This document shows positions 7,792 through 20,000 of a stretch of 20,000 nucleotides of DNA, in pieces. The translations under genes and the position numbers were made by a program. Where the stretch lies: positions 59,981 through 79,980 of the forward strand of contig JAUGWO010000111.1 in assembly GCA_049724395.1 (NCBI GenBank), written 5' to 3'. This stretch comes from Spongospora subterranea f. sp. subterranea. Its lineage: Eukaryota. The first letter of the stretch is position 1. Each line of letters begins with the position of its first letter. Under the pieces are notes generated by a model that worked only from the letters and a program-made list of their open reading frames with translations, made no database searches and was not told the origin of the DNA.

Positions 7792-10554
7792 GTGAAAATA
7801 TTGGGAGATAGCGGGGCTGGCGCCAGTTTCGTTAGTTCATCCGTTGCTTCGACTTCCCAGTTAGAACGAACAAAACTAAAGGGAACAATCCGGGTTTCCT
7901 GTTTTACCGATCGCTTGGGAACGAATGTCAGTGAAAAATCGGCGACTGACGTTCAAATCGGGGACAGCTGTTTTTATTGGAATTTTTTTTTATTCTACCT
8001 CAATCACAGTTCGACGTTATTCTTGGTTATGATTGGTTACAGAAGTTCAATCCACAAATAGACTGGCGAACTGGCAAGTTGAGAGTTTCTCACGCTGAAT
8101 CCCCAGACATTCCGTTAGCATCAATGTCAGTCATCTCAGCAATGAAAAATTCCACTCCCATGCTTCCGGAACACTACCGTGATTTCACAGATGTCTTCTC
8201 AAAGAAAAAGGCTGATATACTACCGCCACATCGTCCCTATGATTGTTTCAATCGACCTACATGTTGGCTCCGCTCCCCCATTCGGACCAATTTACCGTCT
8301 ATCGCAAAAAGAAACGGAAGCGCTGCGTGAACACCTCAATGAGAACCTGCAGAAAGGGTTTATTCGACCATCCAAGTCATCTTGCAGTTCTCCAGTCATG
8401 TTTGTCCCCAAAAAGGACAAAACGCTTCGTTATGCGTCGACTTTTGTAAAATCAATGAGCTGACCATTATGAACAGATATCCATTACCATTGATTTCAGA
8501 CCTGTTATCACAGGCCTCGCGAGGGAAAATATTTACAAAAATTGATCTGCGAGGAGCCTATAACCTGGTACGCATCAAAGAAGGGCATGAGTGGAAGACG
8601 GCATTCCGTTGTGCTTTCGGATTGTATGAATACTTAGTTATGCCTTTCGGTTTAGCGAATGCCCCAGCCTGTTTTCAGCATTTTATGAACGATGTTTTTC
8701 GTGGTTTTATTGGAATTTTTATTGTCTCCTACCTGGACGATATATTGATATATTCTGATATAGAAGCTGATCACATAAATCACGTTCGCTCCGTCTTGGC
8801 AGTGTTACGGGAACACGGTCTGTACGTTAAAATGGAAAAATGTGCTTTTCACGTTTCTGAGGTTCAATTCTTGGGATATGTAATCTCCAACAAATGTGTC
8901 AAAATGGACCCAGCCCGTGTCAATGCTGTTAATTCGTGGCCCCAACCCCTCTCTGTCAAGGAACTTGAATCATTCTTAGGATTTGCAAATTTTTATCGAC
9001 AATTTATTTCCAATTTCGCGTCAACCTGTATGCCTTTATATGAACTAACACACAAACGTGCAACCTTCAAGTGGACTCCCCAATGTCAAATTTCCTTTGA
9101 TATGTTAAAACGCTCTTTCGTGTTTGCTCCAGTTCTAACTACGTTTAACCCTGTTCTGCCTATTATTGTAGAAACTGATGCATCGGACTTCGCCCTCGGT
9201 GCCGTTCTCTCGCAAGCCCACGATGATGGTGAGCACCCTATCGCATACTTTTCTAGAAGGCTCAACCCGTCTGAGCTAAACTACGAAATTTACGATAAGG
9301 AACTATTAGCAATCGTCGCTGCCTTTCAGAGGCATTATTTGGATGGCGCCGCGGAGCCTATCACTGTTTGGAGTGACCACAGAAACCTTCAGTGGTTTTT
9401 GAGCTCCAAAATACTGAACCGTCGCCAAGCACGTTGGTCTTTATTTCTGTCTGAGTTTTCCTTTTGCCTCAAACACAGACCAGGACATTTAAATGTAAAA
9501 GCAGACGCACTGTCCAGACGTTCGGATTATCATTGCGAATCTGCAGTGCCTCGCCCTGTCCTCCATTCACCCATATTCGTCAACAACATCAATTTTGTAA
9601 ACAATGCAGATCCCAGAGAGAATACGCTCATCAAAAAACATTCCGAGTTAGGACTAGGTAAATATGACCTTTCACACTTCTCTTTTCATGACGGAGATCT
9701 GTTTTTTCAACGACGAAAATATATTCACCAACACGAAGATCGTCTAAAACTTCTCATCACTAGGCACGATTCCACGCTAGCGGGCCACTTTGGCATTGCG
9801 AAAACCCAAGAACTCGTCTGCCGTGATTTCTGGTGGCCTGGAATGCATTCGATGATTCGCAATGATGTCAAGTCTTGCGATATTTGCGCCCGATCATAAA
9901 AACACCCCACACAAGCCATCGGGTATGCTCTTGCCACTACCGATTCCCCCCAGACCTTGGTCTTCAATATCGATGGATTTCATTGTCAAACTTCCAAAAT
10001 CACGCGGCTCCTGCTGAAATACGAGGTTCTATTTAATTCAATATGATGCCCTGTGTGAAGTGAGGTCCCATAACTGCTGAGCACCACGGAGTTTGTATTT
10101 ATATCTGACGAGATGTCAATAAATAACCACTGCTTTTCTCCATTAATAAAGGCCAGGCATTAAATTGTCTGAGAGATTTTGGGTACCTTAGCCCAGTTCG
10201 ACTACCGTCCTACCACTTTAGAAGCTCCGACTCCATTTTGGTGGTTGTCGACCGTTTCAGCAAAATGGCTCATTTTACTCCTTGTACGGAATCTTGTACT
10301 AGCACCAATCTCGCTTCTTTGATGTTTAACAATATCTTCAAATTTCATGGACTCCCTGACAGCATGATTTCAGATAGAGGTCCGCAATTTATTAGCAAAT
10401 TCTGGGAGCACCTATTGAAACAACTGAAAATTGACCGAAATCTATCGTTCTGCGCGCCACTCTGAATCAGATGGTCAGACGGAACGTGTCAACCAAATTT
10501 TAGAACAATATTTGCGTTGTTATGTTAATACCTCGCAAAATGACTGGAGTTCAC
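7792..10554 (+). pseudogene. pol: Ty3/gypsy Pol (protease, RT, RNase H, integrase), frameshifted and interrupted
   Basis: DSGA protease, FDVILGYDWL, KIDLRGAYN, YLVMPFGLANAP, YLDD, ETDASD, NYEIYDKELLAI, H...GHFG...[41 protein letters not shown]. Confidence 0.95.
10012..10223 (+). mobile_element. 212-bp insertion, probable solo LTR of a fourth family D (TGCTGAA...TTTAGAA) with 5-bp TSD GCTCC
   Basis: GCTCC at 10007-10011 and 10224-10228. Removing the insert and one TSD copy restores integrase LPKSRGSDSILVVVDRFSK. Ends resemble LTR C (TGTTGAA...CTAGAA). Confidence 0.82.
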
Positions 10555-10781
10555 TGTTGAATACAACTTGCCTGCCTCAAGTACGGACATTCTCCAAGGA
10601 AAGTGCGTACCTCCAGTCGGCGCAACCACGACAAGAGCACGACATAAAGCTGACTGTACGGACTTTACGCATTGGGCTATAAATAGCCATTTCCCAAGGT
10701 ATCTACCTATATAAGCAATTACGCCACATTAATAAATTCATTCTGCTATTGCATCTGTTTGAGCAACATCAACTTTCCACA
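10555..10781 (+). mobile_element. Copia family A 5' LTR, 227 bp (TGTTGA...TCCACA), inserted in the gypsy integrase
   Basis: Matches the reverse complement of 1000-1226. Gypsy integrase breaks at NDWSS. Confidence 0.92.
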
Positions 10782-10795
10782 GATTAACAGTCGAA
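10782..10795 (+). promoter_or_regulatory. Primer-binding site GATTAACAGTCGAA (tRNA-Asn anticodon-arm complement)
   Basis: Immediately follows the terminal CA of LTR A. Confidence 0.8.
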
Positions 10796-10821
10796 ACCGC
10801 TGACCAGTTACGCCCATCCTA

Positions 10822-10903: not shown

Positions 10904-11529
10904 TTCTAGAGAGAGGAGAGATCAGGCGAGCGAGGGAGGGAGCGGGAACGCGAGAGAGGGAGCGGGAACGCGAGAGAGAGAGGGAGCGGGAACGCGAGAG
11001 AGAGAGGAGAACGGAGAAGCGGGCGAGAGAGAGGGAGCGGGAACGCGAGAGAGAGGGAGCGGGAACGCGAGAGAGAGAGGGAGCGGGAACGCGAGAGAGA
11101 GAGAGGGAGCGGGAAGAGAGAGAGGGAGCGGGAACGCGAGAGAGAGAGGGAGCGGGAACGCGAGGAGAGAGGGAGCGGGAACGCGAGAGAGAGGGAGTGG
11201 GAACGATGTTGATTGGAAGAAGCAAATAGAAGAATGAGTTTATTAGAAAACGAGGGGCTCTGATATACAGAGCTAGATATTATTGTCTCAGTCGGAAAAG
11301 GGCGCGCGATTTCTCTGTCGGGAAAAAGGCGCGCTAATCGCGCGCCAAAATCCGTCACACGACAGAGGCTGCGCTACAGGGTTGCTCCTCAGGAGGCCGC
11401 TCATTAAGAGGCCGCGTCGAGTCTTCATCAATATCGGATGTACGTGACAGTGGGCCAATACGACCAGTTTGGGCCAGTACAGCCAATGGGCCAGTACGAC
11501 AGGTTGGCGACGTGGTTTGAACTTCAACA
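10904..11529 (-). mobile_element. Copia C 3' LTR, 626 bp (TGTTGA...CTAGAA)
   Basis: Direct repeat of 15969-16599. One difference seen in the 323-bp unique part. PPT TGAGGGGGCG at 11530-11539. Confidence 0.9.
10905..11205. repeat. GGGAGCGGGAACGC(GA)n minisatellite within the 3' LTR of copia C
   Basis: About 12 units with variable GA run. Also at ~15970-16275 and 13719-13860. Confidence 0.93.
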
Positions 11530-14500
11530 CGCCCCCTCAAACCATGTGCCTTGTTGGTCACCAATCTTTTGCTCAGTTTTGTGAATGTTGCGCCTGAAGT
11601 TGGTTTAGTGAAAATATCTGCGACCATCTCGGCTGTTGGCATGAACTGGACTTGAATCTGGTTGTTGTGAACCATCTGTCTCACGAAATGGTATTTTGCA
11701 TCAATGTGTTTTGTTCGCGCGTCGGTTCTGTTGTTGCCGCTGATAGATATGCATCCTTGGTTATCATCGTATATGACAGTTGCGGCTGGTTCTGGGCGCT
11801 CAAGTTCGAACAACAGTTGGCGGATCCATTTGGCTTCGCGTGACGCACCACATAATGCAATATACTCAGATTCAACAGACGATAAGGCTGTTGAGGGTTG
11901 CAATTTGGATTTCCAAGAGATTGGGGAACCATGAAAAGTGAAAACGAAACCAGTTGTGGATCTCCTCGTGTCCGGGTTACCGGCCCAGTCTGCGTCGCTG
12001 TAGCCATAGAGTCCGGCGGGATTCTTTGAAGAGCCTGCTGTAAATTTCAGGCCGTGGTCCGATGTCCCTGCCAAAAATCGGAGTACTCTCTGTGCTGCCG
12101 TCCAGTGCTGCCGCCCGGGGTTGCTTATAAATCTACATAAGGTTCCGACCGCGCATGCAATGTCGGGTCTTGTGGTTGTGGCTAACCAGTTTAAACTGCC
12201 GACAAGCTCAGAATATGGCACCAATTTCATGTTGTCTCGCTCTTGGTCGGTGGTAGGGCTCATGTTCGTACTGAGGTAGTATCCTGGTTGATGTGGAGTG
12301 TTGGCGGATTTGCAATGATTCATATTGAATCGAAGGAGTAATTCATCAACGTAGTCTTGCTGGTGTAAAAATATTGATCCTGTTGTCCCATCACGCAATA
12401 ACTGCATACCAAGAACACGACTGGGCGCGCCAAGATCGGTGACGTTCCATTTGGACTTGAAGTGATCCACTAATTCATCACAAAGAGTTGGATTATTATG
12501 GGCAATAATGATATCGTCGACATGAATGAGAACAATAGCATAGAAAGTGTCACGTCTGAGATGGTAAAGACAAGGATCAGCAATTGTTCTTCGAAAATGG
12601 AGCTTATTGACCAAGAAATCATCCAGCTGCTGATTCCAGATCATTCCCGCTTGTTTGAGACCGTAGAGAGCTTTCTGTAACTTGCAAACTAGATTTCCTT
12701 GACCAGGCTCGATGAAACCATCAGGCTGTTTCATGTAAATATCGCCGTCAATGTTACCGTTAAGGAATGCGCCCACGATGTCGATTTGACGAAGAAACAA
12801 GCCTTGATCGGCGGTTAGTGCCATGACGATACGAAATGATTCCGAATGTGCGACGGGAGAGAAAGTTTCACTGTAATCGATACCAGCACGTTGGGAGAAG
12901 CCTTTGATCACCAAACGGGCTTTGAACTTTCGAATACCACCGTCTCCGGTCAGATTAGGCTTGGTATTGAAGACCCATTTGCAGGCGATTGCTTTACGGT
13001 CTGGAGGTAGTTCTTGCAACGTCCATGTGTCAAATTCGAGCATCTGCTTGTATTCAACCTGCATAGCATCATACCAATGGCCAGCTTCAGGTCCGTTCAG
13101 GGCTTCTGGGACTGTTTGTGGTACGGTAACAGAAGAAATTGTGAGTGATGCGATGTCCGGTCTTGGCAATTTGATACATGTCGAGTCCAACTGCATTGTG
13201 TGATTGGCTTGATGTGCTTTCCACCATTCTCCTGGAGGTCGAGCGATTCTCTAGGACTGCGACGAACGACTACTGCCGGTTCGGGGTCTAAATCATTATT
13301 GTTGTCAGGCGAATAAGGTAATGATGCGTCCGATGTGCTGTCTGTGTCTTCAGGCTGGACAGGATCCAATTCATTGTCATTATTGCTGACATCTTCGGAT
13401 ATGATGGAATCAGCTGCATTGTTTTCATTCGAAATTTGAACATGGGGTTCCATCTCAGAGCGGAAGCAGCTTTCAAAACAGGGGGAGATGGTATTTCTGG
13501 AATCTGAACTTTCTCTTTGAAATCCGTAATCAAAGGAGTATTCGTCGAACTCGACATCTCGACTGGAATATTCTTTTTGGGATATGGGATCGTACAGCAA
13601 ATAAGCCTTTTGATTCTGTGTGTAGCCAATGTGAATTAGTTTCTGTGCTCGAGGCTGTATCTTTTTCCGTTCGTTGGACTGAAGCAATCTGTAGGCGACA
13701 CAACCGAATGCGACAACCGAACGCGAGAGAGAGAGGGAGCGGGAACGCGAGAGAGAGGGAGCGGGACGAGAGAGAGAGGGAGCGGGAACGCGAGAGAGAG
13801 GGAGCGGGAACGCGAGAGAGAGGGAGCCTGAACGCGAGAGAGAGAGGGAGTGGGAACGATGTTCTAAGGTAGTTAAGATTCGGAACCTGTTTGAACAAGA
13901 CTTCATACGGAGTAACTCGGTCTGGTAACGTCGAGTGGGGGTCGTCGATTGTATATATGAACAGCTACTTGTACAGCCCAAGCAAAACATTGCTGGGGCA
14001 ACTTCGAATGTGATAGTAGACAAAGGGCAATATCAGTCAATGTTCGATTAAGCCTTTCAGCCATGCCATTCGATTGTGAGTTTCCCGGGACTGTCCTTCG
14101 GTGATGAATGCCTTGAAGGTCTAGCCAATCACGACACTCTTTCGACATGTATTCGCCTCCGTTGTCTGATTGAAAATTGCGGATAGTTGTGCTGTGAAGG
14201 TTGTTGAAATGTCGAATGAACTTCTTGAGGTGCTCGAACTGCTCAGATTTGTTTCTCAAACAGGCAATTGTGCAGAATCGGCTGTAAGCATCAATGTATG
14301 TGACAAAGTACTTGGAACCGTCTATGCCAGGGGAAGAAAATGGGCCCATGAGGTCGCTTACGATGAGTTCACCCGGAGTGATTTGATGGTGTGTGGTATT
14401 CAAGAACGGTCCTTTTGACATTTTCCCCATCACGCATGGTTCACAAAAGTGTAATTGCTTGGGAGAAGGTTCTAGTCGAATTCCGTAGCGCGCATCCTTA

Positions 14501-15760
14501 CTCAAATTCGATATTTCCTTGTTGCTGGTATGGCCTAACCTTGCGTGCCATAGTGACAGGGGAAGGGCAACGTCATGTCGGACCGCAAAAGTCGCCGCAT
14601 GGTCTGATGATCGGATAGAATTTGAATCCAGTCTGTACAGGTTGTCCTTATCTTTTCGAATCCTTGCAAGTATGTTTCCAACGGGAGCGGTGAAATCATG
14701 AGAGTGGAAGATAGTCATGTGTTCGCCATCGATCAAAAACTTCATCCCTGATTCTGCTGCTTGGCCGGGAGAAAAGAGGTTTTTCCCGAGGTCCGGAACC
14801 GCCAAAACATTCTCAAGTGGAATTGACCTTCCCTGTACGCGCAAATTGCAGTTACCAGATCCCAACTGAAGGGATGGAAGTGTTGTCACCCAGTTGAATT
14901 TCTGGGTTCAGACTTGCGCTTCGGAATTGCGATAAGATCTGACGGTCAAATGTCATGTGGTTGGAACAGCCAGTATCTACATGCCAGGCCCTGGACTTGA
15001 TAAATGAAGCTTGAGAGGCATAATGGTAGTTTTGAACTTGTCCCTGTTTATTATGTCTCGGCTGCCAGCTGCTAGGGCGAAGCTCAGGGTGTTGTGCATA
15101 ACATTGGTCATCCGTATGGCCAAGGTGTGGGTGAACTTTGCATCGACGCTTCTTGCCAGCAATGTTTGCTTGTGTAGAGGCAATATCTTGGCCTTGACGA
15201 GCTTCTTCGTTTAGCAGCAGGGAGGTGATCGTGACTAGTGAAATATGATCAAAGTCCTGGCAGTCTAAGGCAGTAGCAACTGAGTGGAAACGGCTATCGA
15301 GGTTGCAAACAACGAGTGCTGAAATTAATTTTTCTGGTATCTCGATGCCTGCACCTTGGAGGTCTCGGGCTCGAGATTCGACTCGGCCTATAAATTCTTG
15401 CACTGGTTGCCCGTCTTGCATGCAGGTAACCCATTGGCGCAACTTGACGACAACTGAAGAGAGTGATTTGCGCTGGTAGATGTTATGGAGTTTGACCCAA
15501 TACGCGTGAGCAGAGGTTTCAGAGAGTAAATGACGGAGTACCGAGTCACCCACGTTCAGTTCGATCACACCCCGGGTTTTCGTATCGGTACGGCTCGACG
15601 TCGTGTCAGTTCGCGGTTCGACAGGGTCAAATGTTGCTGGATTATAGGAGATTGATATATCATAATCCTTGTCCTGTAATATGGCCATCATACGACGCTT
15701 CCAGATAGGGAAATCGTCGGATCCTTCGAGCTTATGGATGTTATAGACCGTGGACATCAT
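11355..15760 (-). pseudogene. gag-pol: Copia C gag-pol, broken by frameshifts (~14865, ~13940, ~13240) and an insertion at 13711-13861
   Basis: Gag (KLEGSDDFPIWK), WHVDTGCSNHM protease, LWHARLGH/CEPC, SDLMGP/SDNGGEY/NGMAERLNRT integrase, and an open 613-aa RT-RNase H (KARLV, LYGLKQA, HVDD, YSDADWAG, KHID). Confidence 0.95.
13711..13861 (-). repeat. ~150-bp copy of the LTR C minisatellite inserted in copia C integrase
   Basis: Interrupts LNYLRT|FGCVAY. Starts with the same AACATCGTTCCCACTCCC as the LTR array. Confidence 0.88.
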
Positions 15761-15777
15761 GATGGATGTATATACAG

Positions 15778-15917
15778 TGTACACCTAAATGTATATACAA
15801 ATGTACACCTAAGTGTATATACAAATGTACACCTAAGTGTATATACAAATGTACACCTAAGTGTATATACAAATGTACACCTAAGTGTATATACAAATGT
15901 ACACCTAAGTGTATATA
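15778..15917. repeat. 24-bp tandem repeat in the copia C leader (TGTACACCTAAGTGTATATACAAA, ~6 units)
   Basis: Near-perfect units between the PBS and the gag ATG. Confidence 0.95.
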
Positions 15918-15954
15918 GAATAGCACACTTGAGGTACTATGCAGCTAACAGAGC

Positions 15955-15968
15955 TGGGACTCTTAATC
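15955..15968 (-). promoter_or_regulatory. Primer-binding site of copia C, GATTAAGAGTCCCA (complement of tRNA-Lys CUU anticodon arm)
   Basis: Plus strand TGGGA-CTCTTAA-TC. Begins where homology between the two C LTRs ends. Confidence 0.8.
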
Positions 15969-16599
15969 TTCTAGAGAGAGGAGAGATCAGGCGAGCGAGG
16001 GAGGGAGCGGGAACGCGAGGAGAGGAGCGGGAACGCGAGAGAGAGGGAAGCGGGAAGAGAGAGGGAGCGGGAACGCGAGAGAGAGAGGGAGCGGGAACGC
16101 GAGAGAGAGGGAGCGGGAACGCGAGAGAGAGGGAGCGGGAACGCGAGAGAGAGAGGGAGCGGGAACGCGAGAGAGGGAGCGGGAACGCGAGAGAGAGGGA
16201 GCGGGAACGCGAGAGAGAGGGAGCGGGAACGGAGAGAGGAGGGAGCGGGAACGCGAGAGAGAGGGAGTGGGAACGATGTTGATTGGAAGAAGCAAATAGA
16301 AGAATGAGTTTATTAGAAAACGAGGGGCTCTGATATACAGAGCTAGATATTATTGTCTCAGTCGGAAAAGGGCGCGCGATTTCTCTGTCGGGAAAAAGGC
16401 GCGTTAATCGCGCGCCAAAATCCGTCACACGACAGAGGCTGCGCTACAGGGTTGCTCCTCAGGAGGCCGCTCATTAAGAGGCCGCGTCGAGTCTTCATCA
16501 ATATCGGATGTACGTGACAGTGGGCCAATACGACCAGTTTGGGCCAGTACAGCCAATGGGCCAGTACGACAGGTTGGCGACGTGGTTTGAACTTCAACA
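15969..16599 (-). mobile_element. Copia C 5' LTR, 631 bp
   Basis: Direct repeat of 10904-11529. Length difference lies in the minisatellite. Confidence 0.9.
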
Positions 16600-17368: not shown

Positions 17369-17597
17369 TGTTGAATACAACTTGCCAGCCTCCAGTACGG
17401 ACATTCTCCAAGAAAGGTGCGTACCCCCAGTCGGCGCAACCACGGCAAATGCATAACATAAGAGTGACTGTGCGGACTTTGTATTTGGATTATTAGTGCA
17501 CTCCCCCCTATATTCTCCCACCTATACATGCTATAACCACGCAGTAATAAACCTCATTCTACTATTACCTTCACATCGGAAACATCGATTTCCTTTA
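17369..17597 (+). mobile_element. Copia family B 5' LTR, 229 bp
   Basis: Matches the reverse complement of 1712-1940. Followed by PBS, leader and gag. Confidence 0.93.
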
Positions 17598-17611
17598 GAT
17601 TAACAGTCGAA
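17598..17611 (+). promoter_or_regulatory. Primer-binding site GATTAACAGTCGAA (tRNA-Asn anticodon-arm complement)
   Basis: Same 14-mer as in family A, although sequence on both sides is unrelated between A and B. Confidence 0.82.
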
Positions 17612-17637
17612 TTGCCACCTCATCAGGCCCCTACGTA

Positions 17638-17789
17638 TACACTTCAGTGTATCTTCTCACCACTGCACACATACACCTCAGTGTATATTTCTACCAGCTT
17701 GTACATACACCTTAGTGTATCTTTTTCACCACTGCATACATACACCTCAGTGTATATTTTCTACCAGTTCATACGTACACTTTAGTGTA
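17638..17789 (+). repeat. 34-35-bp leader repeat of copia B copy 2
   Basis: Same array as 4112-4263. Confidence 0.88.
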
Positions 17790-17848
17790 TATTTCTCGTT
17801 ATTCCCACACTTTCTCTTCTCCGCACCTCTACTTCAACTTCAGTTGCG

Positions 17849-20000
17849 ATGAAAGAAATTTTTCAGACGATTCAAAAGTTCTCCGGCAAAGACACCGATG
17901 ACCTGTTACTATGGCAACAAAAGGTAGTGATGTATCTATCGACAAAGGATCTGGAATTATGCGTTGAGAAAGACCCTGATGCTAACGCGACTCCGGACCA
18001 ACTACGCAAAGACAAGAAAGCTAAGTCCATTTTATGCAGCTGCATTGATGACGTGATTGTCGGCGCAATAATGAAGGAAACAACGGCACACAAGGCGTGG
18101 GCGCTTCTTGAAAGCCTTTACCGCAAGAAATCACGATCCACCAGAACCAGACTCATCGCCGAGTTTTGGAACTGCACAAAGAATGACGCCCCGATGGCCA
18201 CTTACATTGCCACCCTTCAAGTTTTACAGTCAAAGCTCCGCGCTATCGGAAAGGATATGACAGATGAAGACATGACTGATCGCCTACTATCAGGCCTCCC
18301 ATCTTGTTTTGACGCATTCACCGTCACGTTGGATACACTCAGCGAAGTCAAGTTTGCCGCTACTGCCGCGTCGCTCATCAATTTTGAAGCCCAACTCGAG
18401 CACAGGTCTCGTGAAGTATCGGCAGTTTCCATCCTGCCTCGAGCATGCGCTACCTCAGTCAAACGGCATTCTCGCTGCAGCTATCACAACTCCAACTCGC
18501 ATGACAATGCCCACTGCTGGGCACAACATCCCGAGCTACGTCCGAAACATTTATTCACTAAACAGTCTGCCTCAGTCTATCCCCTCCAACGATCAAAAGT
18601 AGCTCCACTCTCCCAACAATCAGCTCATGAACACAGTGACGAATGGCTTCTTGACTGTTGCTGCTCAATGCACATGTGTCCCGAATCCTCTACCTTGCAG
18701 GAAGTTCTGCCCGATTCCGATCCCGTGACAGTTACTATGGCAAATAATGAGAGTCTTTGCTCAACTGCAACCGGCAGCAGCAAAATAGGCACTGGAAATA
18801 CCATCATCGATATTTCACCGGTATTACACATACCCGGTCTTTCCAATAATCTTCTCTCCATTGGACAAGCAACTTCGGACGGACTATCGTTTTTGTTCAA
18901 GGGAGACTACTGCAAAATATTCAACATCGACGGTAAACTTGTCGGCAAAGTTAAGAAGGATGCCAACAACTTGTACCCGTTCCCTGATCATCGTAACATA
19001 CCTCATCTACCGTTCGTTGCCTCATCTATTGCGACAAGCGTTAATCTGCATCAACTCTGGCACAACCGCCTCGGCCACATCAACAATGCCGATCTCGACG
19101 TAATCCTACAAGGCATCAATGGCGGTGAAAAGATCATACCCAATCAACGTTTCGGAGCTCTGCAATGGCTGTTTGATGGGGAAGATGCCAAGAGGCAAGA
19201 TAGCGCGTTTTTCCAAATAACTCCACCAGCTCACCCCTCGAAATCGTTCACAGCGATATTTCCGGACCTTTTCCAGTTGATGGCATCCATTCTAGATCAA
19301 GATACTACATCACATTCCTAGATCAGCACACAAGGTATACCGTCGTTTATCTACTTCGAAGGAAATCCGAGGCTTTTAGCAATCAAAACGTTCATCAGAA
19401 TGGTCAATACTCTTTTCTTGGACAAGGGCTTCTCAGTAAAATACTTTCAAAGCGACAATGGCGGCGAATATACTTCCAACGACTGTCAGGCGCTGTTTCA
19501 AGAACTGGGCATTGTGCATAGAAAAATTGTTCCGTATCAATCAGAGCAAATGGGATGATCGAAAGACTGAATCGCACAATCATGGACTGCGCAGAGAGCA
19601 TACGATTCGGTGCAAACTTAAAGCAAAACTTCTGGACAGCCTCTGTTTGTACAGCCGTTTATCTCCTCAATCGCAGGCCCCACAGTCACCTATCGGAACA
19701 CATGTCTCCATTCGAAGCCTGGCACAATAAGAAACCAGACCTAATGCACCTGCGAACGTTCGGTTGCGATGCGTACATCCACCTTCCAAACCAGCTGCAT
19801 CGCAAGCTACAACCAAGAAGCTCAATGGTAACATTTATCGGGTACACCATGGAACAGAAAGGTTATCTCTTTTATTGCAGCTCTACCAACAAAATTACTG
19901 CCACTCGGTTCACTGACGCTGTCTTCGACGAGAACTCTTTCACACGGGAAACCTTGGACCAGATTGATGACAACACTATCCAATTACACCTTGGCGACAT
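17849..20000 (+). pseudogene. gag-pol: Copia family B gag-pol, copy B2 (Gag, PR, IN), small indels after ~19150, runs off the window
   Basis: Near-identical to 4323 onward. Indels lie mostly in homopolymers and may be sequencing errors. Confidence 0.93.

Follow-up and report, generated by a model that had tools for sequence, protein, structure and literature searches.

What primes minus-strand DNA synthesis in Copia elements that carry no TGG primer-binding site? This question is raised by the window analysed here (the whole 20,000-nt stretch of DNA), in which broken LTR retrotransposons are nested: three families of Copia (A, B and C) and a Gypsy element. An initial annotation had reported the absence of a TGG site and had proposed that families A and B are primed by the 5' half of tRNA-Asn(GUU), ending near nt 40 in the manner of copia and Ty5; TGG is indeed absent from the first 8 nt behind all four 5' LTRs. 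Statements taken from the literature below refer to the available parts of the papers cited. The parts of families A and B that bear on the question are the following.

1..966, minus strand: leader and start of gag of family A, with a 19-bp tandem repeat and Retrotran_gag_2
967..999, minus strand: predicted family A primer-binding site in copy 1, core 986-999, 33 nt with its extension, complement of tRNA-Asn nt 9-40
1000..1226, minus strand: family A LTR (A1), TG...CA, 227 bp, its end fixed by a contig from public run X6
1712..1940, minus strand: family B 3' LTR, an insertion that interrupts the RNase H of a family A element
1853..3916, minus strand: RT-RNase H of family B, Copia type (RVT_2, E 1e-65)
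10555..10781, plus strand: 5' LTR (A2) of family A copy 2, 219/227 identical to A1, in the Gypsy integrase region
10782..10814, plus strand: predicted family A primer-binding site in copy 2, with its core at 10782-10795 and the D-arm extension
17369..17597, plus strand: 5' LTR of family B, TG...TA, 229 bp, 227/229 identical to the 3' LTR at 1712-1940
17598..17611, plus strand: predicted family B primer-binding site of 14 nt, complement of tRNA-Asn(GUU) nt 27-40
17849..20000, plus strand: gag-protease-integrase ORFs of family B, a frameshifted copy that ends at the window edge

The Ty1/copia layout was found, with two LTRs, a purine tract ahead of the 3' LTR and a primer site behind the 5' LTR, and the domains Retrotran_gag_2, Pol_BBD, gag_pre-integrs, rve and RVT_2 were identified in families B and C; family A was assigned to Copia by its gag domain (Pfam) and by an RNase H that is 84% identical to that of family B. 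LTR A1 is common to two tandem family A elements, being the 3' LTR of one, preceded by the end of RNase H and a purine tract, and the 5' LTR of the next, followed by the primer site and gag. The two family B LTRs belong to different copies, and the DNA at 17849..20000 is 99% identical to the copy at 4078-6474, in which Retrotran_gag_2, Pol_BBD and rve are in frame (Pfam). The LTR termini are TG..CA in A, TG..TA in B and apparently TG..AA in C, as read in a window of nested elements that has no intact insertion flanked by a target-site duplication. Tandem repeats occur in the leaders of all three Copia families (480-975, 4111-4270, 15754-15921 and 17637-17797), with units of 19 bp in A and 24 bp in C and a longer degenerate unit in B, and the family A repeat lies within an open frame that continues into gag. 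The Gypsy element (6596-10554, plus strand) is also broken and contains RVT_1, RNase H, an integrase zinc domain and DUF4939; there is no TGG behind its apparent LTR end near 6740, and it may be of a self-priming type.

The 14-mer GATTAACAGTCGAA is found at 986-999 on the minus strand and at 10782-10795 and 17598-17611 on the plus strand, and it directly adjoins the LTRs A1, A2 and B without a spacer, just as the initial annotation had described. Its count of 3 compares with a mean of 0.10 in shuffled sequences, none of which (0/200) reached 3, and no further match with up to 2 mismatches was found in the window. The family B 3' LTR (1712-1940) has no 14-mer behind it and serves as an internal control. 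The reading of the reverse complement as a 5-nt stem strand, a CT-GTT-AA loop and 2 nt of the opposite strand was right: the match stops at tRNA nt 40, and the site is thus a complement of an anticodon arm that ends at about tRNA nt 40 and lacks TGG, as is expected of a half-tRNA site. The position of the LTR ends was examined by aligning contigs from four public runs to 930-2050, and the departures given here are among the 17 of 88 loose contig ends listed. One X6 contig departs at 1000, the end of LTR A, and two X5 contigs and one X6 contig depart at 1712 (equivalent to 17597), the end of LTR B, in each case into unrelated flanks. In addition, the empty site of the B insertion was found in two X1 contigs, and the "CA" behind the B 3' LTR is target sequence. 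The ends fixed by contigs, together with the empty sites, indicate that LTR A ends in CA, that LTR B ends in TA, and that the 14-mer lies outside the LTR. One X5 contig joins the end of a family B LTR to the start of another (1714/1940) with 7 letters between them, and this is a tandem or circle junction.

The candidate partner of the site was sought by aligning contigs of four public runs to 948-1004. Run X1 gave 10 records, and in the eighth, a 49-nt contig, letters 9-41 align to 967-999 with 30/33 identical and no gaps, leaving 8 loose letters on either side, of which the rear ones are GAGAGGTT. Both of the same loose ends were found in X5, a separate study, where the upstream one runs at least 255 letters into another flank. 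The RNA-like runs X3 and X4 yielded no contigs on 948-1004, which is no proof of absence. Metagenomes were then scanned with a pattern drawn from 967-999, giving 84 matches at 79 loci, and ARAGORN called 84 tRNA-Asn genes; in BLAST, none of the 79 loci matched the window over 45 bp or more. GAGAGGTT is nt 41-48 in 60/84 of these genes, and the X1 contig, which covers the tRNA as far as nt 48, therefore has the appearance of a tRNA-Asn gene from nt 1 to nt 48, though the locus could be a pseudogene; the 5' octamer of the contig was seen in none of the 84 matches. It follows from this alignment that the family A site is the complement of tRNA-Asn nt 9-40 and that the likeness is lost exactly past nt 40, where the LTR starts. 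Where the pattern prescribed no base, 84/84 genes have CG at nt 25-26 and 83/84 have T at nt 27, and for this reason the 14-nt core is likely to match tRNA-Asn perfectly, with two of the three differences likely at nt 25-26. The binomial chance of 30/33 matches is about 2e-15, and that of the 16/19 outside the core is about 1e-7. The co-occurrence of the tRNA-Asn-like locus and the elements in X1 and X5 suggests that they come from one species, and X1 may be the source of the window.

The D-arm extension is present in both family A copies, and the copy 2 site has 2 differences from that of copy 1. When compared with viral tRNA-Asn halves, which have bacterial-like D-arms, the extension was borderline (18/300 and 23/300 shuffles), and the duplex test against the metagenome tRNAs (0/300) is circular, as these tRNAs were picked by a pattern derived from family A; the D-arm extension thus rests on the X1 contig. 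For family B, the tail behind the 14-mer paired with the tRNA-Asn D-arm no better than shuffles did, as judged with 22 metagenome halves (180/300) and 20 viral halves (197/300). A second pairing box in the B leader was rejected on the same counts, and an 8-nt acceptor motif reached at most 5/8 there. The two families therefore present a contrast within a sister pair, a 33-base site in A versus the 14-nt core alone in B, for the same tRNA.

We propose, with a probability of roughly 0.88, that in families A and B the 3' end of the tRNA-Asn(GUU) 5' half serves as the primer for minus-strand DNA. The element RNA would pair with the anticodon arm of tRNA-Asn, a host nuclease would cut this tRNA within its anticodon stem at about nt 40, and reverse transcriptase would extend the new 3'-OH of the half directly into U5. 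Family B would grip this primer by 14 base pairs, while in family A the pairing would reach into the D-arm as well, for some 30 pairs that are likely interrupted at nt 25-26, and this additional pairing is probably maintained by selection for stronger annealing. It has been reported that synthesis in hemiviruses starts from the 3'-OH of tRNA nt 40 (PMC1181622), and the cut of the Ty5 tRNA has been ascribed to RNase P (PMC5371799). The likelihood of tRNA-Asn half priming derives from the X1 contig, which matches the A site at 30/33 positions and parts from it after nt 40, and the mechanism as a whole is well supported because the LTR boundaries hold, a tRNA-Asn-like locus occurs in two runs and self-priming was not found.

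The agreement between two families is weaker evidence than the initial annotation had assumed, since the families are closely related. It had considered both their U5 and their leader sequences to be unrelated, and this is correct for the leaders past the site, where 942/1000 shuffles score as well, but not for U5: the LTRs of A and B are 73% identical overall and 62% identical over the last 60 nt, a score reached by 0/1000 shuffles. The gag proteins are 71% and the RNase H domains 84% identical. Families A and B are therefore sisters with homologous U5, and the three 14-mer sites represent one inherited trait rather than independent cases; the 14-mer has nevertheless stayed exact across both families while the leader beyond it diverged.

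A separate case is provided by family C, whose RT-RNase H is 45.5% identical to that of family B and whose parts are these.

10904..11529, minus strand: 3' LTR of family C, 606/644 aligned columns identical to the 5' LTR
11358..15760, minus strand: gag, protease, integrase and RT-RNase H of family C in Copia order, with several broken frames (Pfam)
15950..15968, minus strand: predicted primer-binding site of family C, core 15955-15968, of the type of tRNA-Lys(CUU) nt 27-40
15969..16599, minus strand: 5' LTR of family C, 631 bp, apparently TG...AA, with one further base ambiguous

The 14-mer directly behind this 5' LTR (15955-15968, minus strand) differs from that of A and B. When it was compared with 399 distinct tRNAs under 45 labels, the best label was Lys(CTT), with 11 nt, no spacer and an end at nt 40, and the next label reached 7 nt; two 3'-LTR flanks used as controls reached 8 nt, off register. 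The corresponding ranking for Asn is circular, as 204/550 tRNAs were selected on the arm, whereas the Lys ranking is not. Furthermore, tRNA-Lys(CTT) genes make up 7 of the 14 viral loci that contain the full C 14-mer and a T-loop motif. Five bases past the core match tRNA nt 21-25, with nt 26 skipped, and this tail pairing is modestly above shuffles (10/300, with 5 halves). It is therefore likely that family C is primed from a tRNA-Lys(CUU) half. This adds an independent example of the register found in A and B, but a weaker one than the Asn case, because it is a single copy known from the element side only. The family C LTRs also contain a long GA-rich repeat with a unit of about 22-24 bp (10908-11205 and 15973-16275), a piece of which is found within the C integrase region as well (13719-13863).

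Several other explanations of the sites have to be weighed. The site might bind the anticodon arm of tRNA-Asn just for packaging or positioning, with synthesis starting from a different 3' end, such as the intact CCA end bound at some other place or the end of a different RNA. A primer end at nt 40 is a prediction from sequence, and Ty1 and Ty3 are known to have split primer sites, with the Ty3 segments far apart (PMC5371799), both of which give this explanation some room; in A, B and C, however, the match ends at nt 40 with no spacer to the LTR, which is the hemivirus register (PMC1181622), and the family A extension goes solely toward the tRNA 5' end, and we consider it quite improbable. It is very improbable that the 14-mer plays no part in priming today, being either a leftover from an ancestor or a coincidental resemblance. 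Although one ancestral motif would account for the three copies in two sister families, the motif is exact next to leaders that have diverged to the level of noise, the binomial chances of the match to the tRNA-like contig, over the whole site and outside the core, are those given above, and the identical 14-mer opens rust-fungus elements; moreover, the family B LTRs differ at 2/229 bases, which indicates that B moved recently, carrying this site. It is barely credible that the LTR end is misplaced, such that GATTAACA is the CA-ended terminal part of the LTR, or that the elements prime from their own 5' end. LTR B otherwise has the non-canonical end TA, the last four letters of GATTAACA, AACA, are an inverted repeat of those with which the LTR begins, and LTR A1 is a 3' and a 5' LTR at once, all of which could favour a misplaced end, but the idea is largely refuted by the B 3' LTR and four contigs (one for A and three for B), which stop before the motif, and TG..TA has been described as a non-canonical LTR end, mostly in Copia (10.1101/137141). 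As for self-priming of the Tf1/Sushi or TAR type, for which the published criterion is an LTR stretch of 10 nt or more that can pair with the site (PMC6317226, methods), the first 20 nt find in the element's own LTR a complement of at most 6 nt in A and B and 8 nt in C.

A different question is how the 33-base site of family A arose. The pairing breaks at nt 26 in B and C and, as far as can be judged from the 84 tRNA-Asn genes, in A. It has been reported that G26 and G9 are often methylated on the pairing face and that reverse transcriptases misincorporate there (PMC8062790). The family A site might accordingly be a captured cDNA of the element's own mature primer: reverse transcriptase would once have copied on from nt 40 along the attached tRNA-Asn half, slipping at a methylated G26, where the likely differences at nt 25-26 lie, and stopping at a methylated G9, where the match ends. 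If this were true, the genome would hold a record of where the primer was cut and how it was modified, and primer capture would account for switches from one tRNA half to another (iMet, Asn, Lys) in one step. We regard such a capture as unlikely. Ty1 does not inherit the primer sequence (PMC7472051), and family C and Helenus-2_UVF also resume pairing past nt 26, which selection explains equally well. Our preferred reading is that the gap at nt 26 reflects selection for pairing around this nucleotide.

The public runs in which the element was found include soil, rhizosphere and surface metagenomes as well as coded organisms, and the best homologues of the family B and C proteins are metagenome proteins. 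Among viral contigs and genome contigs, no related elements with flanks were found. Two Copia proteins, P0221 and P0133, are filed under Bacillus assemblies on short contigs, and one of them, the only close match under an organism's name, is 99% identical to the family B gag; these are probably eukaryotic contamination.

The priming of copia and Ty5 by tRNA-iMet was reportedly tested experimentally by Kikuchi in 1986 and by Ke in 1999. According to the available parts of the literature that cites this work, half-tRNA priming has been tested experimentally just for these two elements, with tRNA-iMet. The window adds protein-coding, recently active Copia families that are predicted to use Asn and Lys halves, and a tRNA-Asn-like partner occurs in the same runs as the elements. 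Families A and B, with 33 versus 14 bases of pairing, offer a natural comparison for asking whether the tRNA is opened before it is cut, and by which nuclease. Such elements escape annotation built on TGG sites and TG..CA ends.

The initial annotation knew only of half-tRNA cases with tRNA-iMet, but an Asn half primer had already been published (Kojima 2024, PMC10886601), and the tRNA-Asn half as a primer is thus not new; Ile and Arg halves have been published too. In the available parts of that paper, fungal Helenus and Copia elements have sites complementary to tRNA anticodon loops, and tRNA-Asn-GTT is chosen once as the primer while lists elsewhere give Asp (PMC10886601); the "Asp" for the autonomous partner Copia-6_PHord is possibly a slip for Asn. 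In its supplement, 8 consensus internal regions open with the motif and 6 of them with the exact 14-mer, for example Helenus-3_PGr-I and Helenus-2_UVF-I (PMC10886601), and neither of the two listed matches to the Lys motif, out of three, is a primer site. What is added here is the 33-base D-arm pairing of family A, which is absent in B, and the Lys(CUU)-type site in a third Copia family. In the literature searched, which lies outside Repbase and includes few subscription papers, neither a half tRNA-Lys(CUU) primer nor an Asn site reaching as far as the D-arm was found to have been described, and nothing on a primer was found in the available part of PMC2194720.

The rust-fungus Helenus elements are like families A and B in having the same 14-mer, a site for the tRNA-Asn anticodon loop (PMC10886601). 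In contrast to A and B, they are non-autonomous TRIMs with tRNA-like LTR sequence and, mostly, one extra C before the site, whereas A and B are protein-coding Copia elements in which the site adjoins the LTR and, in A, reaches tRNA nt 9. An identity of A, B or C with Helenus TRIMs was rejected, as these elements encode Pol domains and no tRNA was found in the window by ARAGORN or Rfam. The gamma family of Candida albicans corresponds to the LTR of Tca2. Candida albicans gamma and whio resemble the present pair in that an elongator tRNA is matched through the internal region, extensively in one and shortly in the other, but the tRNA there is tRNA-Arg(UCU) and here it is Asn (PMC4139406). Plant Bianca is likewise a Copia lineage for which an elongator tRNA half is the predicted primer (Neumann 2019, PMC6317226); the half in question is tRNA-Ile, and neither a tRNA-Asn nor a tRNA-Lys half was found in the available part of that paper. 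A hemivirus is defined by the ICTV through the use of a short tRNA segment as primer (PMC8515867), and this half-tRNA trait is not monophyletic (PMC1181622). Families A, B and C resemble copia, 1731, Ty5 and Osser, members of the genus Hemivirus in the Pseudoviridae, in their Copia domain order, in a site adjacent to the LTR and in a predicted primer 3' end at nt 40 (PMC1181622, PMC8515867). They differ from copia and Ty5 in the tRNA itself, which is initiator tRNA-Met in those elements and, in the priming predicted here, tRNA-Asn for families A and B and probably tRNA-Lys for family C.
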